A DNA stretch of 32,000 nt from Candidatus Saccharibacteria bacterium oral taxon 488 (lineage in GTDB: Bacteria; Patescibacteriota; Saccharimonadia; Saccharimonadales; Saccharimonadaceae): the NCBI GenBank assembly GCA_010202845.1, contig CP047921.1, forward strand, positions 480,001-512,000. Direction: 5' to 3'. Under the pieces are notes generated by a model. It made no database searches and was not told where the DNA came from. It worked only from the letters and a program-made list of their open reading frames with translations. Below, one piece after another: positions 6,635-32,000 of this stretch. The position numbers were made by a program, and so were the translations under genes. Positions within the stretch are counted from its first letter, which is position 1. The number at the start of each line of letters is the position of its first letter.

Positions 6635-7608
6635 TGGACCGCCTTTTGACTGTCGAGGCTCTGATTGAGCTGGTCAATCTTGCGCCCCAATGCGTTCAAT
6701 TTCTCGACATCAGTGTTGTAAGCATCGACCTTACCCTCGATAGTCTGTCGCTCACGACGAAGCGCCAGGCCGCGCTGGCTCAGCCGTGCTCGCTCAGCCT
6801 GAAACTCAGCTTGCGTCTGAAAACCACCGGTCGCCGCCCGTTGATTAAACGCCGCGACATCTTGGTTATAAGCGCTCATACGCGCACTATATGACGCCAC
6901 CAGTTGCTCAATGTCGTGCTTTCGCTTGGCGAGACTAGCCGTCAATGCGTCAGCCTCGGCCTCGGCATTAGTGAACTTTTCATTATATTGAGCATGCAAC
7001 TTCACCAGCGCCGCTCGATCGCTGAAATACTCAGCATAATGCGCTTCCAGCTCCGCCCCAAGATCAGTAAATTCCGTGCCCAAAATGGAATGTAGCTCAT
7101 TGGCACGTGTACCCGGCTGTGCCCGTTCATAATACGCCATCCGCTCCTCCAGCTTTTTAGTCTTGACCTTGGTATAAGCCGCCTCCAGCAGCTCGCCCAG
7201 CCGCCGACGCTGCTCCGCCGAATAGCGCGACCAGGCTACGTGCAGCATTTCGTGAGCCGCCGTCACCTCTTTGATACCGTCTAGCTCCGTGTTCTGCACG
7301 TTATAAATGTGAATGGTCTCTTTGGCGTGGGCGTAACAGCCGACGATCGGGCTGGCCTGTTCGACACGACGGCAATCCTGATTAAATTGCGTAGCGTTTT
7401 CCAGCCGCGGCTGCGCTAGATAAAAGCTAAATTTGGCCTTATCAGTCATCGTTGCCCGCCGTGCCAATGTTGCTATGTCCTGACTCGGTTGATACTGCCA
7501 GACCCTGATATGATCCAGCACTAGCTGGCGATTGAGCACTAGCCAGCTACCACCGGCCACCAACCCCACAAACACCACGACACCGAGGAAATTACGCAGC
7601 CTGAACAT
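6631..7608 (-). CDS. membrane-anchored hypothetical protein with an HExxH motif and a long coiled-coil C-terminus
   Basis: 325 aa. N-terminal TM (FLGVVVFVGLVAGGSWLVL), AAHEMLHVAW (HExxH), and a heptad-like A/E/Q/R-rich C-terminal ~130 aa. It overlaps the clpC stop by 17 nt and the radA start by 1-4 nt. Confidence 0.75.
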   Translation of the reverse strand: MFRLRNFLGVVVFVGLVAGGSWLVLNRQLVLDHIRVWQYQPSQDIATLARRATMTDKAKFSFYLAQPRLENATQFNQDCRRVEQASPIVGCYAHAKETIHIYNVQNTELDGIKEVTAAHEMLHVAWSRYSAEQRRRLGELLEAAYTKVKTKKLEERMAYYERAQPGTRANELHSILGTEFTDLGAELEAHYAEYFSDRAALVKLHAQYNEKFTNAEAEADALTASLAKRKHDIEQLVASYSARMSAYNQDVAAFNQRAATGGFQTQAEFQAERARLSQRGLALRRERQTIEGKVDAYNTDVEKLNALGRKIDQLNQSLDSQKAVQ

Positions 7609-11222: not shown

Positions 11223-11281
11223 TATTAGCTCCTTTACGCTATATTATTATACTACGTTTCCTATCAAACGCCCAAGAGACG

Positions 11282-11305
11282 AAAAACTCCGACCTGTTGG
11301 CCGGA
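11282..11305 (-). terminator. intrinsic terminator inside the nusA upstream region
   Basis: Minus-strand RNA UCCGGCC-AACA-GGUCGGA (7 bp including one G-U), followed by GUUUUU. It lies about 60 nt upstream of the nusA ATG. Confidence 0.6.
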
Positions 11306-11420
11306 TGCTTAGTAGTGTAGCATACCCAGGCGGGCAGCGTCAAGTTCAGCCGCCCTATTCACCCATGTCAGCCTGCGAACGGGTATGCGTATCTAACAGA
11401 GGTGGGAGCTCATAGCTATT
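11282..11420 (-). promoter_or_regulatory. structured nusA leader or small RNA of unknown class
   Basis: 8-bp long-range helix between 11320-11327 and 11381-11388. Nested 5-bp and 7-bp helices. A competing 5-bp hairpin 11305-11309/11319-11323. It ends at the terminator above. Confidence 0.4.
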
Positions 11421-11440
11421 CACAATCTTGACAAAAAGCA

Positions 11441-11469
11441 TTGACATTTTCTACTAATAGTGATATATA
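11441..11469 (+). promoter_or_regulatory. strong sigma70-like promoter: TTGACA-17 nt-TATATA with TGn extension
   Basis: Perfect -35 at 11441-11446, with a second TTGACA at 11428-11433. 17-nt spacer, then TGATATATA at 11461-11469. Confidence 0.65.
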
Positions 11470-11590
11470 TCTCAGCCTTTTGACAACTTATCGTAAGTTT
11501 TGTCAACTGCGCTTCGCTGCCGTAGGTCGGATACCTACGGTGGCTTGAGGCGCGGAACGGCCGCACCTCAACAAGTGGAAAGGCGTAAAA

Positions 11591-17112: not shown

Positions 17113-18912
17113 TCAATGTTTCCTCTCGGCCGCAATGTCATAACGTGCCAGCTCATCATCAATCCCCACGCCAGCTGTCCGCTGTAGCTTGAGCAAATTA
17201 GCATAAATACCGCCCGATTTTGCCAGCTGTTTCGGCGTACCGATCTCGTCGACCCGGCCATATTTTAGCGTCACAATCCGATCCACCGTGGCGATGGTAC
17301 TCAGCCGGTGGGCGATAATCAGCGTCGTTCGCCCCTTCATCAGCCGCTCCAGCGCCTGCTGCACTAGATGCTCGCTCTTGCTGTCGAGATTGCTCGTTGC
17401 CTCGTCGAGAATGAGAATTGGCGCATCCTTGAGTACCGCCCGCGCGATGGCGATGCGCTGCTTCTGACCGCCGGACAGCTTGAGGCCGCGCTCGCCAATT
17501 TGTGTGTCGTACCCTTTGTCAAGCTCGCTGATGAAGTCATGCGCGTTGGCGGCCTTGGCGGCGGCGATTACCTGCTCATCCGTCGGCTCATCGGCGCCAT
17601 AGGCGATATTTTCACGAATTGTACCGGAAAAGAGCGCTGGCTCCTGAAACACCGTGGCGATATGACGGCGCAAACTCTTTTGCTGCACCGCATCAATTGC
17701 CATATCATCAATCATAATCTCACCACCGTCTGGCTGATACAGGCGCATCAGCAAGTTCGTTAAAGTGGTCTTGCCACCGCCCGACTCACTGACGAGAGCG
17801 ACATGCTCACCGGGACGAAGCGTAAACGAGATGTCGGTCAACACTGGTTTTTGCATGGCAGAGGCGTAGCGAAATGAAACATCGCGAAACTCGACTGCCC
17901 CGCGGCTCACAACTAATTCCGGTGCGTGATGGGCATCTTCAATCGCTGGGCGCAGCGTCATTACGCCAACAAAATCCTTACTCCCAGCCAGAGCTTTCTG
18001 GAAATTATCAACGATGAAACTCATGTTAAACAGCGGCATCCGCAAATTATTAATCAGCGTGATCAATAGCACCATATCGCCGATCGAAAAGCGCCGCTCG
18101 GTCGTCTGCACAAAAATGTACGCAAAAATCATAAAGAAAATGACCGACAACACCACGCCGCGCACGATGTCCATGCTGTGCCAGTAGCGCGATTGCTTGC
18201 GCGTAATGGCAATTGTTTTGCGGTAACGCTTGGCAAAATGACGATATTCAAGCGACTCACGGACATAGCTTTTGACGACTTTGATCTGAGCAATGACTTC
18301 GGCAAACCGGCCGCTGGCCATATCCGTCTCGTGATTTTTACGGTTCTGAAAGGCCTGCCACTTCTTGCTGGTCAGCGCCGTCAGCCACATAAATAGCGGG
18401 TACATAATGACCACCATTACCGCCAACTCCAGGCTGTACACCAGAACGATGCCGATGGTGATACCTGTCGTGAGCAGCATCTGGAAAAAGTTATTGGCAA
18501 ACATGTTCAGGAAATTCGTCGTTTCGGTAATCGCGCGGTTCAGGCGATTGATAATTGTGCCGGTCAGCTCGCCATCAAAATAACTTTGCGGCAAGCCAAG
18601 CAAGTGATGATAGTACCGCGTTGACAGCTGCTGCTTGAGCCGCGTGGCCATCACATCACCCCAGTAACCACCAAGGTTTCGCACCATCGTATTCGTCACG
18701 TCAAGCGCCAGCAGCACCAGCGCCAAGAAAATCGCCTGCTCAATTCCCACCGTGCCGCCCTCAACCACTTCGACCATCAAGCTGGTCGCCCGCGAAATCA
18801 CGAACGGTACTGCGATGCCGGTCAGCGCCACGACAACCGAGCTGACACTAACTCCGACGTAGTATCTGCCCATGCCGCGCGCATATCGGAGCATGTGAAT
18901 TAGCGGCTTCAT
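17113..18912 (-). CDS. ABC exporter, fused permease/ATPase (MsbA/multidrug type)
   Basis: 599 aa. Six-TM N-terminal half, Walker A SESGGGKTT, signature LSGGQKQR, Walker B ILILDEATS. The ATG overlaps the pheT stop (TGATG). Confidence 0.9.
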   Translation of the reverse strand: MKPLIHMLRYARGMGRYYVGVSVSSVVVALTGIAVPFVISRATSLMVEVVEGGTVGIEQAIFLALVLLALDVTNTMVRNLGGYWGDVMATRLKQQLSTRYYHHLLGLPQSYFDGELTGTIINRLNRAITETTNFLNMFANNFFQMLLTTGITIGIVLVYSLELAVMVVIMYPLFMWLTALTSKKWQAFQNRKNHETDMASGRFAEVIAQIKVVKSYVRESLEYRHFAKRYRKTIAITRKQSRYWHSMDIVRGVVLSVIFFMIFAYIFVQTTERRFSIGDMVLLITLINNLRMPLFNMSFIVDNFQKALAGSKDFVGVMTLRPAIEDAHHAPELVVSRGAVEFRDVSFRYASAMQKPVLTDISFTLRPGEHVALVSESGGGKTTLTNLLMRLYQPDGGEIMIDDMAIDAVQQKSLRRHIATVFQEPALFSGTIRENIAYGADEPTDEQVIAAAKAANAHDFISELDKGYDTQIGERGLKLSGGQKQRIAIARAVLKDAPILILDEATSNLDSKSEHLVQQALERLMKGRTTLIIAHRLSTIATVDRIVTLKYGRVDEIGTPKQLAKSGGIYANLLKLQRTAGVGIDDELARYDIAAERKH

Positions 18913-21410
18913 CAGACTATTTCAGCGCCCCACTTGTCTTTGGCCGCCCGTTCAATCTGCTGCATTACCGGCGCGATGTCCTTGTCCGCTAACGTCCGCT
19001 CATGCGAGGTAAACGTCAGCCGCCATGTCATCGTCTTCTGCTCCGCATCATCCTCAGGCTGATAAATAGTGAGTAGCTCAAGTCGCACCTCCATAGCAAC
19101 GTCCCGTACAACCTCGTCCAGCGTCTGTAGTAGCTGCTGATACTTGACAGCGGATGGTACTTTGAGCGAGATATCGCGCGTCGTTGATGGATAGCGGCTG
19201 AGTGGCTGATAATGACTGTCACGCTTGGCGTAGACAGCCTCTAGGCCAGCTGTGTCCAAGCTCGCCGCTGCCACATACACCGGTAATTTGAAGTTCTTGA
19301 TGACTGATTGTTTCAATTCACCGACTAGACCGATGAACGTTCCGTCGGTTGTCTCGACCAACGCACTACGCGACTGGTCAAACGGTGCCGTAACTGGGTA
19401 GTTGAGCTCCTCTTCAATTGGCTTGAATACCAGCTCAGCACCAAGCTCACGCGCTAATTGCTCAACCAAGCGACGAATCACATAAAATGGTGCGCCCGCC
19501 CCTGGCTTTTTGGCGGCGTAGACGATGTCTGTAAACTGACTGGCTACTGGCAAGTTATCTTCGCCTAGGCCATGCATTTTGCTGTGGCCCTTGCCCATCT
19601 CAAACAAGGCAAATTCATCATGCCCGGCCTTGATGTTGGCGTGAACCTTGTCGAGTAGACTTGGCAGCACCGCCAAGCGGTAATATTGCAAATCAGGACT
19701 GAGGGCGTTTGATAATTTGTATGCCTGAGCAACGTCTTGCTCGGCGTTTTTCAGGATACGTTCATGAACGAAACTGTAGGTCAAGACTTCGTTGGCGCCA
19801 GCGCGCGATAGACTTTGGCGAACGGCGTTTTTCAACTCACGACGCAGGTTTTTCGGTGCGGGTTTAATACTACGACGAGGCAGTTGACGCGGTAACTTAT
19901 CAAAGCCATACAGCCGCCCAACCTCCTCGACGATGTCCTCGGGTAGCTCAATATCGGTGCGCCAAAACGGGCTGTAGACCTCACAACCATGTTCATCAAC
20001 TTCAACCATAAATTCAGTACGGCGCAAAATATCGGCAATTTCATCGTTAGAAAAATCAGTACCCAGTCGTTCGTTAACAAACTCATTCGAAACACCTTGC
20101 GAGTCAACACGGTGAATAGCATCCGGCATAATACATTCATTAGATGAGCTAGCGTCAAACACTTCACTCGCCTGCGCTCCACCCACCATGCTCATCAGCT
20201 GTTTCAGCACGGCGGCATTTTGGAGCGGCGATTGACCCTTGTTAAACCGCGTGAGTGCATCGGTAAAAATACCGTGTCGCATGGCCGTACGGCGCAACGC
20301 GTACATGTCAAAATTAGCACATTCGAGGATGATGTTTTTCGTGCCATTTGAGACTTCAGTGTCGGCACCGCCCATAATTCCCGCCAGACCAATCACTCCC
20401 TCGCCATCAGCGATGACGATGTCATCATTCGTCAACTTATACTCTTTGCCATTAAGCAGGCTGACTTTCTCGCCATCACGAGCCATTCGTGCCTCAAGTT
20501 TGTGCCCACGCAATTTGTCATAATCATAGGCGTGCGTTGGCTGCGCCGTCATGAACATCATATAATTCGTGGCATCGACAACGTTATTAATCGGCTTGCC
20601 GCCCATCGCCACCAACTGACATTGTAGCCACAATGGGCTTGGCTGCACGGTAACATCGCGAAACGCTACCGCCATGAACCGCGGCACTAATTCTGGCGCA
20701 TCATTCGCCACGGTGAGCTCCAACCCCTCGCCCGCCGCAAATTGCTGATCTGATTTATACCACTCAGGGCTCGTGAATTGCTGATGAAAAATCCCGGCAA
20801 TCTCGCGCGCCACGCCGAGCTGCCCGAAACAATCCGGCCGGTGCGTAAACATCTTATTTTCAATGTCCAATACGTAATCATCCAGACCAAACGTTTCCGC
20901 GAAATTCGCACCTGCCGTAAGTTCAACGCCCACCGGCACGTCGTGTTCATAAATCTCAACAATTCCCTCGTGATCCGTACCAATCGCCAGCTCGTCCGCC
21001 GCCGCCAACATACCTTGGCTAAGCACTCCACGCAGCGGTCGCGCGTCCAGCACGAACGGCTCGTCGTCATTAAAACTCGCCGGCACCGTACTTTTTGGCG
21101 GCAACCAAATCGCCCACATGTCGGCGTGAACATTCGGCGCACCGCAGACCACTTGTACCAGACCGTCCTCATCGCGCGGCACATCCGCGACCGCGCCGCC
21201 ATCATCGATCTTGGTCACGCTCAGCCGATCGGCGTCAGGATGCTTGGCGCATTCAACCACCCGAACGATCCGCGCGCCACCATATTTAGCGCTGAGGTCG
21301 ATCACTTCTTCGACACCACCAAGTTGCTGATTGACCCGCGCCACCAACTCATCCACCGGCGGTAATTCAAAATTAATCAATTGTTTGATAAGATTTAGGC
21401 TGACTTTCAT
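18912..21410 (-). CDS. pheT: phenylalanine--tRNA ligase beta subunit
   Basis: 832 aa. N-terminal tRNA-binding domain (KHPDADRLSVTKID), B3/4 and B5 regions, and a C-terminal anticodon-binding-like domain. Confidence 0.93.
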   Translation of the reverse strand: MKVSLNLIKQLINFELPPVDELVARVNQQLGGVEEVIDLSAKYGGARIVRVVECAKHPDADRLSVTKIDDGGAVADVPRDEDGLVQVVCGAPNVHADMWAIWLPPKSTVPASFNDDEPFVLDARPLRGVLSQGMLAAADELAIGTDHEGIVEIYEHDVPVGVELTAGANFAETFGLDDYVLDIENKMFTHRPDCFGQLGVAREIAGIFHQQFTSPEWYKSDQQFAAGEGLELTVANDAPELVPRFMAVAFRDVTVQPSPLWLQCQLVAMGGKPINNVVDATNYMMFMTAQPTHAYDYDKLRGHKLEARMARDGEKVSLLNGKEYKLTNDDIVIADGEGVIGLAGIMGGADTEVSNGTKNIILECANFDMYALRRTAMRHGIFTDALTRFNKGQSPLQNAAVLKQLMSMVGGAQASEVFDASSSNECIMPDAIHRVDSQGVSNEFVNERLGTDFSNDEIADILRRTEFMVEVDEHGCEVYSPFWRTDIELPEDIVEEVGRLYGFDKLPRQLPRRSIKPAPKNLRRELKNAVRQSLSRAGANEVLTYSFVHERILKNAEQDVAQAYKLSNALSPDLQYYRLAVLPSLLDKVHANIKAGHDEFALFEMGKGHSKMHGLGEDNLPVASQFTDIVYAAKKPGAGAPFYVIRRLVEQLARELGAELVFKPIEEELNYPVTAPFDQSRSALVETTDGTFIGLVGELKQSVIKNFKLPVYVAAASLDTAGLEAVYAKRDSHYQPLSRYPSTTRDISLKVPSAVKYQQLLQTLDEVVRDVAMEVRLELLTIYQPEDDAEQKTMTWRLTFTSHERTLADKDIAPVMQQIERAAKDKWGAEIV

Positions 21411-21428
21411 ATATATCAGTATAACATT

Positions 21429-21935
21429 CTAATCAACTGTGTAGTCAAACACCTTGACGGGAATACCTTTTTCCCTGGCTTGATCAATCGTAAACGTCGT
21501 GCCAGGACTATCGTTGACCCGAAATGCCACCAGTTCGTCCGCCAGAGCGACAATTTGGCAATTACGCGCATGAAATGAATCAGCGTTAACTTCATTAAAA
21601 TCAGTAGCATCGCACAGCACTCCAAGTCGATATTTGGCGATGTCTCGCAGAAGATCGACCGTCGCGACCGCATCATCCTGGCGACATTTGCCGCCAGCCG
21701 CTCGGCTATACAATGCTTGGCAATATAGCTCCAGATCCACTGGCAAAAATATCTGAAACCGTGCCGCTTCCAAACCACATTCATACGCCAGCCGCGCCGC
21801 TTCGTGATCAGCACCAGTAGCGCCACCCGACACAATTCCATTACCATCGGCAATCTTTTGACCAACAAAATGCTCAATGTCACGGCGAATTGTGTCATTT
21901 ACTTCACGCGTACCGACAACTCCGAGCCACTTCAT
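21429..21935 (-). CDS. SLOG/DprA-like Rossmann-fold protein (DUF2493-like)
   Basis: 168 aa. The SGGATGADHEAARLAYECG motif resembles the GGAxGAD signature of the SLOG/DUF2493/DprA-type fold. Assignment is by motif recognition only. Confidence 0.5.
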   Translation of the reverse strand: MKWLGVVGTREVNDTIRRDIEHFVGQKIADGNGIVSGGATGADHEAARLAYECGLEAARFQIFLPVDLELYCQALYSRAAGGKCRQDDAVATVDLLRDIAKYRLGVLCDATDFNEVNADSFHARNCQIVALADELVAFRVNDSPGTTFTIDQAREKGIPVKVFDYTVD

Positions 21936-21964
21936 AGTTCGCCCCGTTGGTTAAAGTTAAAATA

Positions 21965-22420
21965 TTACCCTTGAGCAGCAATGATCTGCGCCTGAATCCG
22001 GTTTAGTTCGGCCTCATCCATCTTTGGCCCCTCGGTCGTCGTCAGCCAACCACGATAGCTCTCGTGAAACTCTGCGTTCTCTGCCCAGACATCAGTCCGC
22101 CCTGCCAAGTCACCGTGCAGCGGATACAGCTTAGCATGCACATGCGCCACGCCCGTCCCCTCGAATACCAGCGCTACCCGCGGTGTATCAAACGCGCGCT
22201 CCAGCAGCCGCGCCACCTGGCGCACTGCTCGCATAAACTCGAGGTACAGCGTCTCGTCAATCGCAAAAATATAATCACCCGGATTATGCTTTGGAATGAC
22301 CACTGTCACCCCCGGGGTATTTGGAAACGGCGTGAGAAACGCCAGAAATTGCTCGTCCTCCCAAACCTTCCATGATTTTACGGTGCCTGATACAATGTCG
22401 TCGAAAATTGTATGGTTCAT
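21965..22420 (-). CDS. HIT (histidine triad) family protein
   Basis: 151 aa with histidine triad GVAHVHAKLYP. AAGGAG SD upstream. Confidence 0.85.
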   Translation of the reverse strand: MNHTIFDDIVSGTVKSWKVWEDEQFLAFLTPFPNTPGVTVVIPKHNPGDYIFAIDETLYLEFMRAVRQVARLLERAFDTPRVALVFEGTGVAHVHAKLYPLHGDLAGRTDVWAENAEFHESYRGWLTTTEGPKMDEAELNRIQAQIIAAQG

Positions 22421-22646
22421 AGTTACTCCTTTTAAGATAATTATAGCAAATAATTTTAAGCTAAAGCAAAATTACTTAACACTGCGCAAGCACTAATAGT
22501 TGTATTATCTCCTAAAACTACTAGCATGCCGCGATCTTCCCCTGAAAGCGCTACAGAACTTTTGGTTCATGGAGCTAATTACGATCACGTCATTTTAATT
22601 TTACATATACGGCGCCATGATTTTACTGGAATTTTTGTAAAATCAC

Positions 22647-22675
22647 TTGACTTAGCAATCTGGTATTGATATATA
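22647..22675 (+). promoter_or_regulatory. strong sigma70-like promoter: TTGACT-17 nt-TATATA with TGn extension
   Basis: -35 at 22647-22652 and TGATATATA at 22667-22675. The 11-mer TGATATATATC is identical to the promoter at 11461-11471. Confidence 0.6.
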
Positions 22676-22730
22676 TCAGCTTTTTACGTAATTCCGCGTA
22701 TCAAGCAAGTGCTAGTAGAAAGGGGTAGTC

Positions 22731-22946
22731 ATGGGTGGCTACCAGGACGGTGATCGTTGGGTTGACCCGGATGGAACTTCTCACACGGTCAATTCGACCA
22801 ACGATCCCAATGTTCCGGGTGGATACTACTACAACCAGCACGGCCCTGACGGCCACGCAACGGCCGTCTACAACTCTGACGGAACGTTCGCCAATGTGGC
22901 GGCGAATCGCGACTGGGTCGAAGTGCCGCGCCAAGACCAGGACTAG
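22731..22946 (+). CDS. small hydrophilic G/D/N/Y-rich protein, unknown function
   Basis: 71 aa with an AAAGGGG SD 5 nt upstream. YD-like repeats (GGYYYNQHGPDGH, AVYNSDGTF). No signal peptide or TM. It is a GC-rich patch in which three other frames are also open, so the frame choice rests on the SD. Confidence 0.5.
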   Translation: MGGYQDGDRWVDPDGTSHTVNSTNDPNVPGGYYYNQHGPDGHATAVYNSDGTFANVAANRDWVEVPRQDQD

Positions 22947-23029
22947 TCTGAGCTAGTTGGTCCCTCGCAGACCTCAGCATGTCTGCGTGTGCCCTTGGCA
23001 CAAAACAAAAACTGCTCTATTCTTGTATT

Positions 23030-23464
23030 ATGAGACCTACTGATGAAATCGCCACTGCCATTCGCGCCAATGACCTGCCAACCTATCAGCGCGAACGCTA
23101 CCCCGCTATCCAGGAAGGCGAGTTTGTTCGTTTTGTAGATGAGGATTTTTCTGGCGTTGATTTTGGCCAGTTTGTCATGGGATTTTTCATGTTTGAGAAT
23201 TGCAACCTGGATTACGCAAAGCATATTTACGGGCAACCAATTTGTTTTAAGAATTCATCAGTTCAGAGCGTAGATTTTCGCGGCGTCAAAGCTATTATTG
23301 AGACAGGGGGCTGTGACTTTCGCGGCATGAAATATGATAAGGAAACACAATTTGTTTATGGCAGTGGCAAGTTGGCAGCGCGATCACGTTTCGTGAACTG
23401 CCAGTTGGATGATGAGGCACGTGAGTTTTTGGCAAAACAAGGCGTGGAGATCGCAGATAAATAA
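23030..23464 (+). CDS. pentapeptide-repeat-like protein
   Basis: Five-residue periodicity EDFSG/VDFGQ/FVMGF/FMFEN/CNLDY..., with further DFRG repeats. The start is uncertain: ATG 23030 (MRPTDEI...) or ATG 22979. Neither has a clear SD. Confidence 0.55.
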   Translation: MRPTDEIATAIRANDLPTYQRERYPAIQEGEFVRFVDEDFSGVDFGQFVMGFFMFENCNLDYAKHIYGQPICFKNSSVQSVDFRGVKAIIETGGCDFRGMKYDKETQFVYGSGKLAARSRFVNCQLDDEAREFLAKQGVEIADK

Positions 23465-23509
23465 ACCTCTGAACAAACACGATACTGGATGAGAATGAAA
23501 GGCCACCAA

Positions 23510-24073
23510 ATGACCAAAAAGCTACTAGAAATCGAACGCAAACGCCAATTAACCGGCGACGCAAAAGAATTAATCAAGCGATTGCAAGGCCTCGGTTTTG
23601 AGTTAGAGAGCAGCCGCCACGAAATCGATACGTACTATTCTCGCCCCGATGTCAATTTCATGCAGACGGTCGAATGTTTGCGGATTCGCCAGCGCGATGG
23701 TTTTGCTGAGGTGACATATAAGCCTGCGACGACGATTGCGACACATACGAAAAACGATGTGATCATTAAGCCCGAGACAAACCTACCGATTCAGCCCGGG
23801 AACGCGGCAATCGCCAAGCAGCTACTGGCAAATCTCGGTATGGTGCAGCTCGTTGAAGTTAATAAATACCGGCGATCATTCCAATCCCCAGACTTTCCGC
23901 AGGCAACGGTGGCTATAGACGAAATCAAAGACGCTGGGACGTTTGTAGAAGTTGAAGTTTTGTCAGATGATGAGACTAGTGCGCTGGCGATGATCAGCGA
24001 GATTGAGGTCAAACTCGGCCTTGACTCGGCAGAAGTTGTCACGCGGCCTTATCGGGATATTTGTATGGGATAA
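23510..24073 (+). CDS. CYTH-domain protein (class IV adenylate cyclase / triphosphate tunnel metalloenzyme family)
   Basis: N-terminal EIERK (ExExK) signature and C-terminal GTFVEVEV strand. Size of 187-194 aa is typical of CyaB-like proteins. ATG 23510 is preceded by GAAAGG; the track start is 23489. Confidence 0.8.
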   Translation: MTKKLLEIERKRQLTGDAKELIKRLQGLGFELESSRHEIDTYYSRPDVNFMQTVECLRIRQRDGFAEVTYKPATTIATHTKNDVIIKPETNLPIQPGNAAIAKQLLANLGMVQLVEVNKYRRSFQSPDFPQATVAIDEIKDAGTFVEVEVLSDDETSALAMISEIEVKLGLDSAEVVTRPYRDICMG

Positions 24074-24544
24074 TTAAGCTACGTTTTTATCAAATCCACG
24101 CCTGGCCCTACTATCCAACCGCAGCACCACACTATACAAAAATATGCTAACCCCCCAAAAAATAACGCTCAGATAATTACCCCAATTAAAATCATTCCAA
24201 GGATTGCGGGTCGGGCTGTCTGTTGGGTCGTACGCCACAAATCCCACTACGGACATCACGATAATAATCAGAAGTCCGGAGATAATGATTTCACGCACAT
24301 AGCTGGAGCGCTGAAATAGTGATAGCCTCAGGTTATATCGAGACCCCGACGGCAACAACACCAATAACACAATAACGATATACGATGGGATGGTTATTAT
24401 GCCCTCAAATACATCCCACGGGTTAACCTTCATGATATCAGGTTTCACTACCTTCACGATCTCTTGCATACCCAGCGACACCCCAAAGAACAGCAGCAGG
24501 ATGATCAGCACCAGCCCAACAGAACTCCATCGCCTAGTCCACAT
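24074..24544 (-). CDS. four-TM small membrane protein, unknown family
   Basis: 156 aa with four hydrophobic helices (about residues 8-25, 48-64, 85-104, 124-141). AGGAG SD 6 nt upstream, lying inside the end of the preceding gene. 11-nt overlap with that gene. Confidence 0.75.
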   Translation of the reverse strand: MWTRRWSSVGLVLIILLLFFGVSLGMQEIVKVVKPDIMKVNPWDVFEGIITIPSYIVIVLLVLLPSGSRYNLRLSLFQRSSYVREIIISGLLIIIVMSVVGFVAYDPTDSPTRNPWNDFNWGNYLSVIFWGVSIFLYSVVLRLDSRARRGFDKNVA

Positions 24545-25460
24545 TCTTCGCTCCTGCTATGACGCTTGTCGCTACTTTGTAGACTTCATGTATTTTACCA
24601 AACACCTGCTTGTCATATTCTTCTCGGTCTTCGATGCTGCTGTCTGGTAATTCGATAGTATTCTTGAACTGCGGCTGCATGATATTAACCGATGTTACCT
24701 CCATACCTTCTTCAATTTCAACGTCGTAGACCTGCTTTTCGACGCCCGGAAATTCCTTCACATAGTGATCAATGTACGCGCCAGGAGACAGGAACTTACC
24801 CCTACTCGGCCGAAAATCAATGACGATAGTACCAAGTGTATCAGTACGATTATCGATCGAGGGTGCAGAGAATAAACTTTTCGCTAGTTGGCTAATTTTA
24901 TTATTGTGCTCTATGGCTTCACGAGGAACAAATATTTTCGCGGATTTTATACGATGAGCCTGCCTGATTAACTCGATAGCATCTGGATGACAGACCACCG
25001 TCCCGATAAATGCTAGCTTTTCAGAAAGCGAGAGCTTTGTTGCGCAATTGTTTATATACGCTAGGATCTTTACGTTTGTGGCGACGTTTCGGTTGTATTC
25101 TAACGCCATAATTCCCTTGTCAGCATAGTAGAGGAAATGCACTACCTGCACCGGCAGCTGCCCATCGGGCAGCGGATAACGCCTGATGAGATCGTCATCG
25201 TCCCTACCTATGGTAATCACGTTTGATCCGTACACGGCGATGATACCCGCGTAACATTTGGATGATTCACTAGTTTTATGTAGCTTGTCAAACTGCAAGA
25301 GCCGCATAAACGACTCATCATCATTTGGATTGTACTGCCAATTCCTATCGTCCTCTTCAAGCTTCATCAGATCACGGAGAACATCCTCAAACGGATAGCT
25401 GCCGTATCCCTCATCGTCACGGTTGGTGATGTTGTAGAGAAAGACGTTGCGCTTGATCAT
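24534..25460 (-). CDS. soluble protein of unknown family, acidic N-terminal region
   Basis: 308 aa from ATG 25460, with GGAGAG SD 5 nt upstream (the track start is GTG at 25463). No motif I can assign. It starts 30 nt after the pheS stop on the same strand. Confidence 0.75.
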   Translation of the reverse strand: MIKRNVFLYNITNRDDEGYGSYPFEDVLRDLMKLEEDDRNWQYNPNDDESFMRLLQFDKLHKTSESSKCYAGIIAVYGSNVITIGRDDDDLIRRYPLPDGQLPVQVVHFLYYADKGIMALEYNRNVATNVKILAYINNCATKLSLSEKLAFIGTVVCHPDAIELIRQAHRIKSAKIFVPREAIEHNNKISQLAKSLFSAPSIDNRTDTLGTIVIDFRPSRGKFLSPGAYIDHYVKEFPGVEKQVYDVEIEEGMEVTSVNIMQPQFKNTIELPDSSIEDREEYDKQVFGKIHEVYKVATSVIAGAKNVD

Positions 25461-25490
25461 CACAGCTCTCCGGTGAACCTAACGGTTGAA

Positions 25491-26534
25491 TTAAAACTGC
25501 TCCAAAAAGTCCAACTTACCGCTTTCAAAATGCCGCACGTCTTCAATGCCGTATTTCATCATTACCAGCCGGTCGATGCCGCAGCCAAAGGCAAAGCCAG
25601 TGTACTTATTCGGGTCGATATCGGCAGCCTTCAGCACATTCGGATGAATCATGCCGCAGCCCAATAGTTCGATCCAGCCCTCGCCCGAACAAACTTTACA
25701 GCCTGCATCCTCATCCTCACAGAATGGGCAGCTCAGTGCAAATTCAAAGCTCGGTTCGGTGAATGGGAAATAAAATGGATTGACGCGCACGTCAAGTTGC
25801 TTGCCGTAATATTCTTGCAAAAACTCCTGCAAGGTAGCGATCAGATTGCCGACGTTAACCCCCTTGGCGACATACACGCCCTCAACTTGATAGAATGTGT
25901 GCTCGTGCCGCGCGTCCAGGTCTTCGTTACGAAACACCCGGTCGGGCACGATGGCGGCGATCGCCTCGCCGCTCGCCAAATTACCGCGATATTTCTTCAG
26001 TACGCGGTTCTGCATGGTCGAGGTGTGCGCCGGTGCAATCAAGCGGTCGCCATTAGCGTCAGTCTCCTCAGTCATGAACGTGTCATAATCATCGCGCGCT
26101 GGGTGACCTTTCGGGAAATTCAGGCTCTCAAACATATGAAATTGGTCATCAATCTCACGCGACTCTTCCGTCACGAAACCCATTCGATTGAAAATGTCAG
26201 AAATGCGGTCAATTTCTCGCATCAATGGATGAATCGTGCCGTGCTCACTCGGTAGCAAACTAGGCCGTGGGGCATTGACGTCCATCGGCGCTGTCACGTC
26301 AATTGGCGGCAAATCAACTTTCGATAGCTCATCTTCGCGAGCCGTAACTGCCCGCTCCAATTCCTGCTTCAATTCATTAACCTTTTTACCAAATACCCCG
26401 CGCTCTTCGCTTGGCAACGTCGCGATAACGCCATATAGTTCCCGCAGCTCTGCGCTCCGCAACACGCTACGCGGTTCAGCTGCCTCGGCTACGCGCGATA
26501 ATAATAGTGATCGAACTTCCTCTAACGTTTCCAC
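25491..26534 (-). CDS. pheS: phenylalanine--tRNA ligase alpha subunit
   Basis: 347 aa. Class II motif 2 (FRNEDLDARHEHTFYQVEG) and motif 3 (GFAFGCGIDRLVMM). GTG start 1 nt after the stop of the upstream small ORF. Confidence 0.93.
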   Translation of the reverse strand: METLEEVRSLLLSRVAEAAEPRSVLRSAELRELYGVIATLPSEERGVFGKKVNELKQELERAVTAREDELSKVDLPPIDVTAPMDVNAPRPSLLPSEHGTIHPLMREIDRISDIFNRMGFVTEESREIDDQFHMFESLNFPKGHPARDDYDTFMTEETDANGDRLIAPAHTSTMQNRVLKKYRGNLASGEAIAAIVPDRVFRNEDLDARHEHTFYQVEGVYVAKGVNVGNLIATLQEFLQEYYGKQLDVRVNPFYFPFTEPSFEFALSCPFCEDEDAGCKVCSGEGWIELLGCGMIHPNVLKAADIDPNKYTGFAFGCGIDRLVMMKYGIEDVRHFESGKLDFLEQF

Positions 26535-26535
26535 G

Positions 26536-26772
26536 TCATCGCCCCTGCATCAAAAACATACCGACAACCACGGCCGCCATGATCACAATTATAATCCAGG
26601 CCGGTGCCAGCATCGTCGTCTGCTTCGTATCTTCCAAATATTTTACATCCTCTACGCCGTCTAGGCTGGCTTTTTCCTGAAGGCCCGACGCCTTGGCCTT
26701 CTCGCGCAGCTCCGCCGCAATGCGTTCTTGTAGTTCACTGCGCCGATCTTGTTGATTTACAAATAATCCCAT
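26536..26772 (-). CDS. small tail-anchored membrane protein
   Basis: 78 aa. Charged helical N-terminus and a single C-terminal TM (LAPAWIIIVIMAAVVVGMFLM). TATAAT at 26784..26779 lies 6 nt upstream of the ATG, with no SD. Confidence 0.55.
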   Translation of the reverse strand: MGLFVNQQDRRSELQERIAAELREKAKASGLQEKASLDGVEDVKYLEDTKQTTMLAPAWIIIVIMAAVVVGMFLMQGR

Positions 26773-26828: not shown

Positions 26829-27824
26829 ATGGCCACGAAGAAGACTACTAAAAAGGCCGCGACTGCAAAATCCAGTTCAAAGAAAACGACTGCTGCAGCT
26901 GCTACATCGAAAACAACCGTAACGCGTGTCACCAGCAAGGCTGAGACGAAAAAACCAGAGGTCAAATCAACTGCTGCTAAACCCGTCAGAACTAGCTCAC
27001 CACGCAAAAAATTAGATACCAAGCTACCGCGCAACCTCGTCAACATCGTACTCGCCGAAGTTGCTGGTACGTTCATCTTGACGCTAGTCGCCTTGTTCTC
27101 GGCATATATGATGACACCGTTTTACATTGGTCTAGCACTGGTAGTATTAGTGCTCGGTATTGGTGCAATCTCCGGCGCGCACATTAACCCAGCCGTGACG
27201 TTCGGTCTCTGGACGATGCGTAAGCTTCGGGCTATACTCGTGCCGTTCTACTGGGCAGCACAATTCCTTGGCGCAATGGCTGCCGTTGTCTTGATGGGAG
27301 CAATTTCATCAGGCAGCTTCGTCATTAACTTTGACCAATTTACCACTTTCTCGTGGGCGATCTTTGCCGTCGAGCTCGTCGGTATGGCGGTCTTTATGTT
27401 CGGGGTGAGTGCTGCTCTGTCACGCACTGATCTCAAGAATACCAGTAGAGCCGTAGTCATCGGTATGTCATTGACACTTGGCCTCGTCGTTAGCGGTGCA
27501 TTGCTACCACTCGCCCAAAATGCTGCTGTCCAAAAGTACCAACAGGAGCAAGCAAATGCGACTCGGCAAACTCAGCAGCTAAAGGATCAGCGTACTTACC
27601 CGCGTGAGGTATATATCAGCGGTGCAACCCTGAACCCAGCAGTTGCCTTAGCCGTGACTGAAAAGACTAACTCACAGCTACAAAATGCCTCAGCACCAGC
27701 ACAAAAAACAGAGAAAATGTATACCCGCCTCAGCCTCGAGGTTATTGCCGCAACCCTCGTTGGCGCAGCGCTCGGCGGTAACTTGTTCCTACTAATCGGC
27801 TATCGCAACAAGGTTGAAGAATAA
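26829..27824 (+). CDS. MIP/aquaporin-family channel with a long basic N-terminal extension
   Basis: 331 aa with two NPA boxes (HINPAVTF, TLNPAVAL) and six TM segments. The first ~75 aa are K/T/A/S-rich low complexity. Confidence 0.88.
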   Translation: MATKKTTKKAATAKSSSKKTTAAAATSKTTVTRVTSKAETKKPEVKSTAAKPVRTSSPRKKLDTKLPRNLVNIVLAEVAGTFILTLVALFSAYMMTPFYIGLALVVLVLGIGAISGAHINPAVTFGLWTMRKLRAILVPFYWAAQFLGAMAAVVLMGAISSGSFVINFDQFTTFSWAIFAVELVGMAVFMFGVSAALSRTDLKNTSRAVVIGMSLTLGLVVSGALLPLAQNAAVQKYQQEQANATRQTQQLKDQRTYPREVYISGATLNPAVALAVTEKTNSQLQNASAPAQKTEKMYTRLSLEVIAATLVGAALGGNLFLLIGYRNKVEE

Positions 27825-28970: not shown

Positions 28971-29420
28971 TTACAGAGACAAGACAACTCGCGCCAACAG
29001 GACAAATATAGCCAAAAAGATAATCGCCGCCACGTTGCCGCGGATCCGGTTCAGCCACATCGCGGTTGCGTATACGAAGCCAAACGCCACGGTTGTTACC
29101 ATCAGCGACAACCACCACACCTCAGCAGCCGAGACACCAATACCCCACAGTGCACCAACCGCCGCGAGTACCACGAGCAGCGGCCGCCTGACTCGATTGA
29201 GAGCGACAATCGGTACGAGCATAACGCTGACCAATACCAGCGCAACGTAGGCACCGATTTGCGCACTGTTCGTACACATTGATGGGTCGGCTGTCGGGCC
29301 GCAAATAATCTGCTTTAGGATAAAGCGATCAAGCGCCAGGGCGATCAGCCATGTCACGACACCGCCAACCATACCGCTGACGACAACTCGCCAGAACACC
29401 GCCGGCGTCACAGGAAACAT
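28971..29420 (-). CDS. four-TM membrane protein, unknown function
   Basis: Start placed at ATG 29420 (MFPVTPAVFW...), with GAGGAAG upstream. The track start at 29564 would overlap the PAP2 gene by 58 nt. Confidence 0.6.
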   Translation of the reverse strand: MFPVTPAVFWRVVVSGMVGGVVTWLIALALDRFILKQIICGPTADPSMCTNSAQIGAYVALVLVSVMLVPIVALNRVRRPLLVVLAAVGALWGIGVSAAEVWWLSLMVTTVAFGFVYATAMWLNRIRGNVAAIIFLAIFVLLARVVLSL

Positions 29421-29506
29421 ATAGTCTGATTCTTCCTCGTGAAAAACTTTCTCAAACCACTTCACAATAGATACAACTATAGCAGTAATTTGATAAAACC
29501 GCAACC

Positions 29507-29998
29507 CTATTTTGCAGTGCGTGACACCCGTCGCAACGGCATGTACCAGAATATGCCCACCCAAGCGATGATGAGCCCCCCAGCCACATCAAGCGGCGTA
29601 TGCACCAGCGCCACCACCCGCCCTATACCAACCAGTAGCGTCATCACCAAACAGGCCACGGCCCACCCTCGACACTTCGCGCCGAACCACACCGCCAACG
29701 TGATGGCCATAGTGAACAGGGCGTGATCGGACGGGAAACCCGGATTATCCAAAAACGAGGCGCCGGCGCTCACGCCTGCTAGCTCAAACGGACGGAGGCC
29801 TGATGGCTGATATAATAACCCGATAATTTTTGCCGCAACAAACGCCGTCAGCCCCGCCATCAGCACTCGCATATACACCTGATAGCGCTGGCCTCGCGGT
29901 ACGTGTCGGATGAGCGTATATATCCCGATCAGCACCACTGGGATCACCAGCCCGTCGGCAATAATTTTCACCATCCATGAAATATCCATAAGCCCCAT
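29507..29998 (-). CDS. PAP2-superfamily lipid phosphatase
   Basis: 163 aa. The three PAP2 motifs are Kx6RP (KIIGLLYQPSGLRP), PSDH (FPSDHA) and SRx5Hx3D-like (IGRVVALVHTPLDV). Confidence 0.85.
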   Translation of the reverse strand: MGLMDISWMVKIIADGLVIPVVLIGIYTLIRHVPRGQRYQVYMRVLMAGLTAFVAAKIIGLLYQPSGLRPFELAGVSAGASFLDNPGFPSDHALFTMAITLAVWFGAKCRGWAVACLVMTLLVGIGRVVALVHTPLDVAGGLIIAWVGIFWYMPLRRVSRTAK

Positions 29999-30047
29999 TA
30001 TACCCTGCTAGGCCCTGGCGTCAAACCCTGAACCTTAGCTCGTCGAC

Positions 30048-30076
30048 TTGCGCCGCTTTATCATCCATAGTATAAT
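30048..30076 (+). promoter_or_regulatory. candidate tRNA promoter: TTGCGC-17 nt-TATAAT
   Basis: The -10 at 30071-30076 lies 11 nt upstream of the mature tRNA 5' end. Confidence 0.5.
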
Positions 30077-30087
30077 CAGACACGCGT

Positions 30088-30162
30088 TGGGGATTCGCCA
30101 AGTGGTAAGGCACCGGGTTCTGGTCCCGGCATTCGGGGGTTCGAATCCCTCATCCCCAGCCA
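30088..30162 (+). tRNA. tRNA-Gln (anticodon CUG), CCA encoded
   Basis: Manual cloverleaf. Acceptor UGGGGAU/AUCCCCA. Anticodon stem CCGGG/CCCGG with loop UUCUGGU. T arm GGGGG-UUCGAAU-CCCUC. Discriminator G followed by CCA. Confidence 0.9.
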
Positions 30163-30197
30163 AGAAAAAGGATTGACGTTTTGTCAATCTTTTTTCT
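30163..30197. terminator. bidirectional intrinsic terminator
   Basis: AGAAAAA-GGATTGAC-loop-GTCAATCT-TTTTTC. It serves the tRNA on the + strand and the membrane-protein gene on the - strand, whose stop lies in the 3' arm. Confidence 0.7.
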
Positions 30198-30687
30198 TGC
30201 GCTTTGGTTTGGTATGAACCTGATGGTCAGTTGATGTTTCTTGAGATTTTACCGTGGTTGTCGCGCCACCCTGGCCGAAACCGCTTGCCCATATCGCCAA
30301 AATCCACACGCCGGCCAGGAACAGGAGCGACCAGCTACCGCCCGGTAGGTCAAACGTCGCCCCAAATATCATTGATACTCCGTGACAGAATGCCATGCTT
30401 TCTAGCAGCGTCAACAGCAGTAGCGCCACGATGCCCATCATAGCACTTACCTTTCTCAGCCTAGCCGATATATCCATGGCCAGCAGGAACGGCAACGCCC
30501 CAATCTCTGCGACAACGAGAACGATGGCGCACACTGCCGCCATCACGCTCGGCAATCCAGCGAGCATTGCTGGAAACTTATCAAACGAAAATAGCTGGCT
30601 CAAGACGATGACGAGAATATATCCGGCAACGATTAACCGTACAATGTGTACGACTGATATTGGTCGTTGGGTTGATGTTTTCTTCAT
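30184..30687 (-). CDS. four-TM membrane protein (possibly DoxX/MauE-like) with a basic C-terminal tail
   Basis: 167 aa with four hydrophobic helices and a C-terminal KPKRKKKD. The family call is weak. Confidence 0.6.
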   Translation of the reverse strand: MKKTSTQRPISVVHIVRLIVAGYILVIVLSQLFSFDKFPAMLAGLPSVMAAVCAIVLVVAEIGALPFLLAMDISARLRKVSAMMGIVALLLLTLLESMAFCHGVSMIFGATFDLPGGSWSLLFLAGVWILAIWASGFGQGGATTTVKSQETSTDHQVHTKPKRKKKD

Positions 30688-30934
30688 AGATACAGTATAC
30701 CGACCCGCCTTAAAAAGCTCAAGCTTGTTGTATTATTTACCAAAGCGCTTGCTTTTTTTATTAAAAACACGTACAGTAACAACAAGCGAACGATACAAAA
30801 ACAAACACTACTGACGTTTCTTTCGCTCTACGATATCCACCACAACAAAATACCGTTACGAGTATGTAGCGGTATTTTCCGTTGTTGGATAAATCACAAC
30901 GCTATATATAGCGTATACGTGCTATAGTAACAAT

Positions 30935-32000
30935 ATGAAAGAATATTGTGAGTCGAGAGGGTTTGTTGAGTTTGGTCCAAAAAATACCGCACCTGTACCA
31001 TTACTTGCCATTAACGAAATTGAGCAGATTCGTAAAACATATGATCCAGGGGCAATCACTGAACTAGCGACTTCAATCGTTCACGAGGAGGACGGTAATA
31101 CTTGGTTCGATATGTACAATCCTCTCCTAGCCGCCTGCCTCACACCAGAGGAGGCGGAGCAATACCTCAAGGAACACGCTGCGTTTCATAAAGGATCTCA
31201 ATCAATTGATAGTCTTACGCCAGACCATGACGGTAACTACGTCATCCTGATCTCTGGGCATCGTCGTAAACGCGCTATCGAACAGCTAATCAGCCAACAT
31301 GGCATTACGCCGGAATGCGTTCGCGTGAATGTCAATCTTCGCCGTGGCATTACCTTTGAGGAAGCACTCGTTGCCCAAGTGCGCGAGAATACACACGAGA
31401 AAGTGTCGCCTACTGAAACCGCCAAATATATCGAGCAACTACACGCCTATCTCGAGAATAAAGAAGGGGCACAGCCGACCTACAGGCGACTGTCTATGAT
31501 GACCGGGATTAGTGAAGGCATTATTAGTACTGCGCTACGATTTCAGCGCCTACCGGAAAGCATCCGACTACTTGCCACCACTCATGGCGATATCCTCCCC
31601 TACTCAACCCTTGTAAGACTCGAGCCACTAATGCGCAAACGAGGCGAGCTGTATAAGAAGTTACTCTCGCTCGGGCAAACCATGAACGGGGAAGACTGTG
31701 AGACCTATGTCGAGAATCACCTTCATATCGTGGCGAATACCATTGTTGAAGGCCTCCTTGGCGCCAAGAAGCGCAATCACTATATTCGGCAGCAGATTAG
31801 CGACCTAGAACTACGAATTATCAATGCCCAGCCCAGCTTTGACCTTATAGCAGAAACCAGCTCTGGAGCTCAGCGAAAGGCATCAGAGACCCGCCTCGGT
31901 AAGACAGCCGTATCGGCCATGCGGCATGCCTGTCGAGACGATCCAAGAAATATGCCACCCGAACAGCTAGCTGACCTCGAGGAGTTCGTCGCAAAAGCCA
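30935..32000 (+). CDS. ParB/sulfiredoxin-domain protein, partial; continues past the window end
   Basis: Own translation gives MKEYCESRGFVEFGPKNTAPVPLLAINEIEQIRKTYDPGAITELATSIVHE...ILISGHRRKRAIEQL...VRENTHEKVSPTETAKYI. It has a ParB N-terminal box with the GxRRxxA motif and is open for 355 codons to position 32000. It is not in the ORF track because there is no stop in the window. Confidence 0.75.
   Translation, partial: MKEYCESRGFVEFGPKNTAPVPLLAINEIEQIRKTYDPGAITELATSIVHEEDGNTWFDMYNPLLAACLTPEEAEQYLKEHAAFHKGSQSIDSLTPDHDGNYVILISGHRRKRAIEQLISQHGITPECVRVNVNLRRGITFEEALVAQVRENTHEKVSPTETAKYIEQLHAYLENKEGAQPTYRRLSMMTGISEGIISTALRFQRLPESIRLLATTHGDILPYSTLVRLEPLMRKRGELYKKLLSLGQTMNGEDCETYVENHLHIVANTIVEGLLGAKKRNHYIRQQISDLELRIINAQPSFDLIAETSSGAQRKASETRLGKTAVSAMRHACRDDPRNMPPEQLADLEEFVAKA

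Follow-up and report, generated by a model that had tools for sequence, protein, structure and literature searches.

RexAB of phage lambda and the pairs of Rex-like genes known from actinobacteriophages (Sbash gp30/31, CarolAnn gp44/43 and Butters) share one architecture, in which a cytosolic protein of about 300 aa is followed, in the same orientation, by a four-helix membrane protein of about 145 aa. In the actinobacteriophage pairs, a DUF4747 protein is combined with the four-helix membrane protein and the membrane is depolarised, DUF4747 being a motif reported in both RexA and Sbash gp30 (PMC6426596). On bacterial chromosomes, hotspots such as those of enterobacteria, Pseudomonas and Listeria are characterized by conserved core flanks, sharp boundaries, strain-specific defence-rich cargo and a mild compositional deviation. 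Here we describe a locus that resembles both types of system, in a stretch of 32,000 nucleotides from Candidatus Saccharibacteria bacterium oral taxon 488, whose genome is of the oral Saccharibacteria (TM7, Nanosynbacter-type) kind (GCA_010202845.1, CP047921.1, 480,001-512,000). This whole stretch is referred to as the window, and all its coordinates are given as window positions. In the window, pheS and pheT, the two subunit genes of phenylalanyl-tRNA synthetase (PheRS), are separated by 4,080 bp containing seven open reading frames (ORFs), as established from the ORF list and Pfam; the spacing of about 4 kb and the order and orientation of the intervening genes agree with a first-pass annotation made from the letters alone. 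From pheS to pheT, these genes are g309 and g156 (named after their protein lengths, as are g161 and g71), a CYTH gene, g161, g71, a HIT gene and a SLOG gene.

We consider it likely that this gap is an allele of a hypervariable locus found across the lineage, an integrase-free hotspot of recombination and defence located within a split pheST operon, and that it carries a distant Rex-like pair, g309-g156. Saccharibacteria have genomes of about 0.7 Mb, which leave little room for accessory DNA, and to our knowledge almost nothing is known about their resistance to phages. No described pheS-pheT hotspot or variable region in Saccharibacteria was found in the literature.

The pheS-pheT gap in related Saccharibacteria

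To compare the locus with its relatives, the 80 closest PheS loci of a species-level genome collection, all from Saccharibacteria, were searched with all window proteins by tblastn and with the window DNA by blastn; individual loci are designated L001 and so on. Both genes are found on one locus in 37 genomes, where the gap measures 9-21 bp in three (L050, L055 and L061), 642 bp in one (L056) and 3.0-9.9 kb in 33, while in 12 further genomes pheT is beyond reach within 10 kb of pheS. The spacing of 9-21 bp corresponds to the ordinary operon state; since three relatives retain it, the separation seen in the window is the derived state, and the intervening DNA is non-ancestral, as the first-pass annotation had proposed. 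Alignment to relatives also reveals that the seven window genes are far from universally conserved: all seven are present in just one of the 37 genomes, L001, an independent assembly that shares the gene order of the window for 13 kb (91% identity).

The boundaries of the variable DNA are sharp. In dozens of loci, blastn homology to the window stops at the pheS stop codon (25488-25493) and restarts at 21426-21436, 16-26 bp before the pheT ATG. Gap composition deviates moderately from its surroundings, with a GC content of 0.475 in the gap and 0.462 in its core (22421-25490) against 0.52 in the window, and with a tetranucleotide correlation that drops to 0.63 at 23501-26000 against about 0.8 elsewhere, positions 29000-32000 being equally deviant. 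No integrase or transposase domain was detected in the window proteins by domain search, and the search for flanking direct or inverted repeats in 21000-26700 returned only chance-level matches (up to 27 nt at 65-80% identity), in agreement with what had been noticed on first reading. The g309 pair is already present in the pheS-pheT gap of genomes whose PheS identity is only 76-82%; judged from these alignments, the split is old and lineage-wide.

In five of the sampled loci, pheS is followed by variable genes and then by genes other than pheT: rplF, rplO, secY or rpoA in L020, L027, L028 and L030, and bipA and mgsA in L045. These neighbours indicate that, in some lineages, the locus is also a chromosomal rearrangement (synteny) breakpoint.

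Modular organization of the gap

The seven genes belong to at least five modules, each with its own distribution among relatives (g309 with g156, CYTH, g71 with g161, HIT, and SLOG), and at least three variable slots can be defined: slot 1 between pheS and CYTH, slot 2 between CYTH and HIT, and slot 3 between HIT and pheT. In slot 1, g309-g156 is found in L001, L005, L013 and L031, and also in L040, which belongs to another clade; L025 has g309 and most of g156. The same slot is empty in L049, L028 and L030, where the stop codons of pheS and CYTH lie 15 bp apart, and holds unrelated small cassettes in other genomes. In slot 2, g71-g161 is shared among the pheS loci by L001 and L035 only; a gene of 570-616 aa replaces it in L005, L013 and L025 (570 aa in L005 and L013). 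In slot 3, the SLOG gene is cleanly missing from L031, which matches the window on both sides.

CYTH and HIT, which border these slots, are frequent, non-universal residents of the gap. CYTH occurs in the gaps of many relatives at 81-93% identity by tblastn, and its stop codon in the window abuts that of the convergent g156, bounding slot 1. HIT homologues are present in the gaps of about 45 of the 80 relatives, at 70-100% identity and at a variable distance from pheS. The view that the central genes have no housekeeping identity therefore holds in part: HIT and CYTH are common gap residents, and g161 belongs to a family of 792 homologous clusters whose members usually have hisS on one side and a SpoU methylase gene on the other.

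Defence and accessory cargo

The recurrent and long cargo genes of the relatives' gaps, about 40 families in total, were annotated. Defence genes are enriched among them. In L045, an AbiP2-type reverse transcriptase lies immediately behind pheS (PADLOC E 2e-153); L007 carries PDC-S46 (E 6e-209), L066 an OLD/GajA/AriA-like ATPase-nuclease, L012 and L015 ThsB-TIR with a zeta toxin, and L003 Fic. Restriction-modification functions are represented by an MmeI-type enzyme (methylase) with a helicase and a T5orf172 protein in L019, by a type I system with a KAP NTPase and a reverse transcriptase in L083, and by an EcoRI-type methylase with GmrSD in L084. In the window itself, the defence content amounts to the putative Rex-like pair and a weak ShosA-like match. 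Accessory cargo includes, by Pfam, a pyridine-nucleotide disulfide oxidoreductase, an alpha/beta hydrolase, ASCH and GNAT-ASCH proteins; by sequence reading without Pfam support, NUDIX hydrolases, an adenosine deaminase and a two-component system with FtsX-type permeases; and, in the precomputed annotation of L085, Ham1-like and guanylate-kinase-like genes. Integrases and transposases are absent from the annotated families.

The locus thus shares with known chromosomal hotspots its conserved core flanks and variable cargo. It differs from them in that it is flanked by genes for the two subunits of a single essential enzyme, whose ordinary spacing is 9-21 bp; that no integrase, tRNA target or flanking att repeat is associated with the gap; that nested sub-slots are separated by the semi-conserved CYTH and HIT genes; and that the host genome is ultra-small, with accessory DNA scarce.

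The g309-g156 pair

No direct match to g309 is found in Pfam (even at E<=1), NCBIfam or PADLOC, and its family is small: searches covering 5.8 billion and 1.84 billion proteins found 19 clusters and 20 representatives, respectively. Homologues with 51-57% identity occur in the genomes with PheS identities of 76-82%, likewise within the pheS-pheT gap, and each is followed by an overlapping gene of 141-152 aa; in the window, the g309 and g156 ORFs overlap by 11 bp on the minus strand, and in L081 a pair of this type fills the entire gap. More distant relatives detected by profile (E 7e-41 to 5e-4) match DUF6731 at 54, 36 and 34 bits (cutoff 27), and one profile-detected relative also weakly matches DUF4747; no paper linking DUF6731 to RexA was found in the literature. 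The phage family phrog_10865 is matched by g309 at E 0.003 and by its distant relative P0038 at 5e-14. A tblastn search of 50,697 phage genomes with both proteins yielded no match. P0038 (L089) is encoded outside Saccharibacteria, in a prophage, between a repressor/ImmA pair and a serine integrase, that is, in the immunity region where lambda keeps rexAB. Another relative from outside Saccharibacteria lies inside a type III restriction-modification island.

One annotated homologue, P0005 (327 aa), carries an N-terminal extension (MRAGGWTFWSSF...) that corresponds to the 3' end of pheS in another frame; this points to a gene-calling artefact at the tight pheS-g309 junction.

The structure of g309 was modelled with AlphaFold2. 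A first model from 17 close homologues was too poor in its C-terminal half (predicted local distance difference test, pLDDT, 62) and was replaced by one built from a 25-sequence alignment (pLDDT 80.9). In a Foldseek search of the PDB, the top match to this model is lambda RexA (8twq, E 3.9e-6, probability 1.0), ahead of RdgC from E. coli (2owl, E 5.8e-5) and, after it, CENP-N/Chl4; the RexA and RdgC matches align over the full length. The same structural relatives, RdgC and CENP-N, are reported for RexA in its structure paper (PMC11077077). Among the viral models of BFVD, the best matches are uncharacterised phage proteins of about 300 aa (E 4e-15 to 1e-7), followed by phage RdgC. By its predicted model, g309 has the two-domain fold of RexA and RdgC.

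The partner, g156, gives essentially no match in Pfam, NCBIfam, PADLOC or PHROGs. Its hydrophobic segments, at residues 8-26, 45-63, 86-104 and 125-143, are placed much as those of RexB, at 8-26, 48-66, 84-102 and 116-134. Wherever the gene neighbouring a g309 relative is readable, it encodes a membrane protein of 133-166 aa, mostly with four hydrophobic segments: the partner adjoins the homologue in L081, L083, L084, L085, L093 and L095 and is convergent with it in L089. This partner evolves fast, with 20-28% identity where g309 has 51-57%.

In the central loop between helices 2 and 3, g156-type proteins and RexB share a basic stretch, R-L-x-x-[FI]-[RKQ]...Y, which is too short to serve as evidence of homology. 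The Sbash study found the loop between these helices to be essential for defence.

Taken together, the pair is best read as RexAB-like in predicted fold and architecture, without being filed in the RexA or RexB sequence families. As in RexAB, a gene for a cytosolic protein precedes one for a four-helix membrane protein in the same orientation, and the pair lies behind a constitutively needed gene, pheS here and cI in lambda. Unlike RexA and RexB, g309 and g156 have no detectable sequence similarity to those families; g309 is 30 residues longer than RexA; the pair is chromosomal, in the split aminoacyl-tRNA synthetase operon of an episymbiont with a genome of about 0.7 Mb rather than in a prophage, and is known here from sequence and a structural model. 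If the pair acts like RexAB of lambda and gp30/31 of mycobacteriophage Sbash, g309 would sense infection as a DNA-binding sensor and g156 would then depolarise the membrane, so that both the anti-phage function and the mechanism of the pair are proposals from analogy. A broader proposal is more tentative, with somewhat less than an even chance: that g309-g156 belongs to a new Rex-like abortive-infection branch tied to DUF6731, common to prophages of other bacteria and to Patescibacteria and hard-wired behind pheS in Saccharibacteria, with the split pheST operon as their principal integrase-free defence hotspot, refreshed by transformation.

Kiwa (the membrane protein KwaA and the DUF4868 protein KwaB) also combines a small multi-pass membrane protein with a soluble protein of about 300 aa in defence islands. 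It was set aside as a reading of the pair on its reversed gene order, the lack of a PADLOC match for g309 and g156 in a library that presumably includes KwaA/KwaB models, and the absence of Kiwa chains from the top Foldseek matches.

Exchange between lineages

Two observations bear on how the cassettes move. In L040, the flanking proteins are well diverged from those of the window (PheS 85%, PheT 72%, MIP 44% and g78 49% identity), whereas the cassette is far closer, at 87% for g309, 91% for g156 and 91% for CYTH; vertically diverged pairs at PheS identities of 76-82% retain just 51-57% (g309) and 20-28% (partner). This contrast indicates that the cassette has been exchanged between lineages. 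The other observation is a scar found in seven relatives (L063, L066, L068, L070, L072, L075 and L078), about 0.9 kb downstream of the resident pheS, where a truncated HIT (its first ~215 nt) is joined to the last ~40 nt and stop codon of a pheS 3' end. This pheS remnant is nearer to the window-clade allele than to the resident one, and behind it come a further cassette and a full-length HIT. Read from the sequence, the scar has the form expected of homology-facilitated illegitimate recombination of incoming DNA, which would stack two alleles in tandem. The scar, which occupies 11660-11990 in L066, creates a chimeric ORF of 109-124 aa.

Saccharibacteria are naturally competent and integrate DNA through homology arms of about 1 kb (PMC10633639), and the cassettes probably move by homologous recombination following natural transformation. 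The route of insertion, left without an explanation in the first-pass annotation, is accounted for better by homologous and homology-facilitated illegitimate recombination, as seen in the L040 exchange and the seven scars, than by a mobile element. We propose that the hotspot opened inside the ancestral pheST operon of host-associated Saccharibacteria and that the window carries a composite allele of a Rex-like module, CYTH, g71-g161, HIT and SLOG. Modules would be gained, lost and swapped among strains by homologous recombination after natural transformation, with the conserved pheS 3' end, CYTH, HIT and the pheT 5' end as homology arms, and occasional homology-facilitated illegitimate joins would enlarge the gap.

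Proposed transcription of the split operon

As in the canonical pheST operon, both genes in the window are intact and share one strand, with pheS coming first. The start of g309 lies 27 bp past the pheS stop codon on the same strand, preceded by GGAGAG, and in relatives this distance is 1-9 bp. With such tight spacing, the pair can be read through from pheS, like rexAB from cI, and g309-g156 is probably co-transcribed with pheS. In contrast to the canonical operon, three plus-strand genes converge on the pheS-g309-g156 unit, so that pheT would no longer be read through from pheS and would have to use a downstream promoter.

Two candidate promoters were read by eye in the AT-rich spacer between HIT and g71: an extended -10 element, TGCTATAAT, at 22440-22448 on the minus strand, about 20 nt before the HIT start, and TTGACT-17-TATATA on the plus strand, some 60-90 nt ahead of the g71 start codon. 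The two ends of the spacer follow different genes: in relatives, conservation of 22421-22448 goes with HIT, and in L035 that of 22620-22730 goes with g71. In the proposed arrangement, the TGCTATAAT promoter would drive HIT-SLOG-pheT with HIT as the first gene of the unit, and HIT and SLOG, together with this extended -10 promoter, would now supply pheT transcription. The spacer had been described as the longest AT-rich intergenic stretch of the window; it is the most AT-rich, and two intergenic stretches (11223-11590 and 30688-31236) are longer. An Rfam search of the whole window identified only the tRNA at 30088; riboswitches, T-boxes and sRNAs were absent, and the spacer matched no known RNA family even at a permissive threshold.

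The 18-nt leader of pheT (21411-21428, AATGTTATACTGATATAT before the ATG) contains no recognisable Shine-Dalgarno sequence; in L050 and L055, where the operon is intact, GGAGG lies ahead of pheT.

Alternative explanations

That the split itself is an artefact of assembly or binning, on a chimeric contig, might be suspected because metagenome-assembled genomes are numerous among the relatives and contigs often end soon after pheS: at least 13 of the 80 do so less than 1 kb beyond it. Assemblies typically break at strain-variable DNA, which would account for these contig ends. Isolate genomes and the complete chromosomes NZ_CP157587 and OX335598 (gaps of 5.9 kb and 9.3 kb) are split as well, and with the 13-kb colinearity of L001 this leaves the artefact practically without probability. 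The first-pass annotation had seen the pattern of an insertion into an operon. If this meant a single mobile element (an island, prophage remnant or transposon) that was inserted once and whose mobility genes have since decayed, the lower GC (0.46-0.475 against 0.52), the dip in tetranucleotide correlation and the sharp edges, at the pheS stop codon on one side and the pheT leader on the other, would follow naturally. However, the seven genes have five different distributions among relatives; change proceeds slot by slot (g71-g161 replaced in L005 and L013, SLOG missing in L031, g309-g156 missing in L049, L028 and L030); and repeats, integrases and transposases are absent from the window, as they are from the annotated gap genes of relatives. 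The single-element explanation is largely refuted and very improbable. What stands of the insertion claim is that the DNA is derived, variable and mildly deviant in composition; what falls is the single element or event, the gap being a nested mosaic of several modules.

The intervening genes could instead be partners of PheRS or of translation, kept in a selected operon expansion in which HIT would act on aminoacyl-adenylates or g309-g156 on PheRS. HIT/Hint enzymes do hydrolyse aminoacyl-AMP, HIT is present in about 45 of the 80 gaps, and in every Saccharibacteria context examined g309 homologues (51-95% identity) lie directly downstream of pheS or in the gap. Yet g309-g156 is missing from most relatives and HIT from several, unrelated defence genes occupy the same slot in other strains, and the family members outside Saccharibacteria lie away from pheS, in a prophage immunity region and a restriction-modification island; a PheRS-related role is accordingly unlikely. 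A role of g309 as an RdgC-like recombination regulator that modulates RecA, with the membrane gene unrelated or an anchor and no abortive infection, is disfavoured, and we regard it as rather unlikely. RdgC comes nearly level with RexA in Foldseek, phage RdgC proteins are among the BFVD matches, and RexA homologues without RexB (orphans) exist (PMC11077077). Against such a role, family members keep an overlapping membrane partner of 133-166 aa even though it evolves fast, RdgC genes being without such a partner; the genes are found in a defence island and in the immunity region of a prophage; and the best BFVD matches are uncharacterised phage proteins rather than annotated RdgC.

Several results weigh against the interpretation preferred here, that of a defence hotspot with a Rex-like pair. 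The TM-scores between g309 and RexA are low (0.31-0.38, root-mean-square deviation 14 Å); the models may differ in domain orientation, yet the match is weakened. With hhalign, the g309 family aligns to a 19-sequence RexA family with a probability of 0.15%, and to lambda RexA alone without significance; a sequence-profile search of the PDB with the g309 family returned nothing. The Pfam RexA family (PF15969) gives no match to g309 where the lambda RexA control scores 327 bits, and the RexB family (PF15968) gives none at E<=10 to g156 and five partners where the lambda RexB control scores 305 bits. The DUF6731 connection runs through profile-detected relatives, g309 itself having no such match. 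The window pair is chromosomal, between pheS and CYTH, and no phage genes are nearby. HIT, CYTH, g161 and the NUDIX and ASCH genes of relatives may have ordinary roles in nucleotide salvage rather than in conflict. Finally, a consensus promoter and terminator scan performed like its shuffled controls (9 promoters found against 8.2 expected), and transformation, as the route of DNA entry, is a deduction.

If the proposed hotspot and new Rex-like branch are correct, they would offer a first handle on phage resistance in CPR bacteria. The locus shows where ultra-small genomes concentrate strain-variable genes, and the splitting of an essential two-gene operon would give the cargo both conserved homology arms and assured transcription. 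It also contains a candidate anti-phage module that is missed by Pfam and PADLOC and detected only by fold comparison, and ties the orphan family DUF6731 to the RexA fold, subject to the qualifications given above. Hotspots and Rex-like systems are both already known, so that the novelty lies in the place and in the distant pair rather than in a new kind of biology. For practical genetics, slots that can be exchanged in nature lie between the conserved pheS, CYTH, HIT and pheT arms, in organisms that are transformable (PMC10633639).

Features and remaining genes

The coordinates of the gap and its flanks are summarized in Table 1.

Table 1. Genes and regulatory regions of the split pheST locus (window positions)
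Feature	Position	Strand	Description
pheS	25491..26534	-	Pfam tRNA-synt_2d, E 3e-79; right-hand hotspot anchor
g309, 309 aa	24534..25463	-	RexA/RdgC-fold protein (predicted); proposed cytosolic DNA-binding sensor of Rex-like pair
g156, 156 aa	24074..24544	-	Small four-helix membrane protein; proposed RexB-like effector
CYTH / class IV adenylate cyclase-like gene, 194 aa	23489..24073	+	Pfam CYTH, E 2e-24; TIGR00318
g161, 161 aa	22979..23464	+	Saccharibacteria-wide family, no Pfam domain
g71, 71 aa	22731..22946	+	Small Gly/Asp/Asn-rich protein; travels with g161
AT-rich divergent control region	22421..22730	.	GC 0.35; between HIT and g71
HIT-family nucleotide hydrolase gene, 151 aa	21965..22420	-	Pfam HIT, E 1.6e-6
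SLOG / DprA-like Rossmann protein, 168 aa	21429..21935	-	Pfam DNA_processg_A, E 8e-14, and weak SLOG families
Conserved pheT leader	21411..21436	-	Left boundary; blastn alignments of >25 loci end at 21426-21436
pheT	18912..21410	-	Pfam B3_4, B5, tRNA_synthFbeta, FDX-ACB, tRNA_bind; left-hand hotspot anchor

The CYTH protein matches TIGR00318 (cyaB, class IV adenylate cyclase) at 81.2 bits, above the curated cutoff of 57.95, which suggests a class IV adenylate cyclase-like protein in a family that also includes triphosphatases. L085, a Saccharibacterium further removed from the window genome, has a divergent CYTH gene (30% identity) located 3 bp upstream of a g309-g143 pair and on the same strand (5395-7339), a juxtaposition that differs from the convergent abutment of the window.

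Pfam, NCBIfam, PADLOC and PHROGs yield essentially nothing for g161 and g71. Pfam domains are absent from all clusters of the g161 family, whose members are mostly 143-167 aa long; from these lengths, the true start of the window gene may be the ATG at 23030. In other Nanosynbacter genomes, the homologue occupies the position next to hisS mentioned above (e.g. L091/L092, 10001-10432). By homology, then, g161 is not foreign, and the window copy is a relocated or duplicated conserved Saccharibacteria gene. Between g71 and its L035 homologue, substitutions number 10, 4 and 29 at codon positions 1, 2 and 3, and there is an indel of 15 nt that stays in frame, a pattern which shows g71 to be a real gene.

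The SLOG protein has a weak PADLOC match to ShosA/PsyrA that is limited to about 50 N-terminal residues. ShosTA and PsyrTA were rejected as identities, given this N-terminal match and the lack of an adjacent PRTase or RecQ-like toxin gene.

Beside pheT, proteins of about 300-316 aa with an N-terminal HxxEH motif and no Pfam match recur in the gaps of many relatives, for example in L038 (15734-16684, minus strand), L079 (18898-19797, minus strand) and L033 (14108-15013, minus strand). On the other side of pheS, a MIP/aquaporin gene (26829-27824, plus strand) encodes a Lys/Thr/Ala-rich N-terminal extension. Its product is 98-99% identical in L001, L005 and L013 and just 56-65% in more than 20 genomes whose flanking RmuC (97-98%) and PheS (93-94%) are nearly unchanged, pointing to allelic replacement or to a very high rate of evolution in this single gene. 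At the end of the window, positions 29000-32000 show the strongest tetranucleotide deviation (z up to 3.4) and hold a 549-bp intergenic stretch (30688-31236) and the tRNA gene (30088-30159); this may be another variable region.

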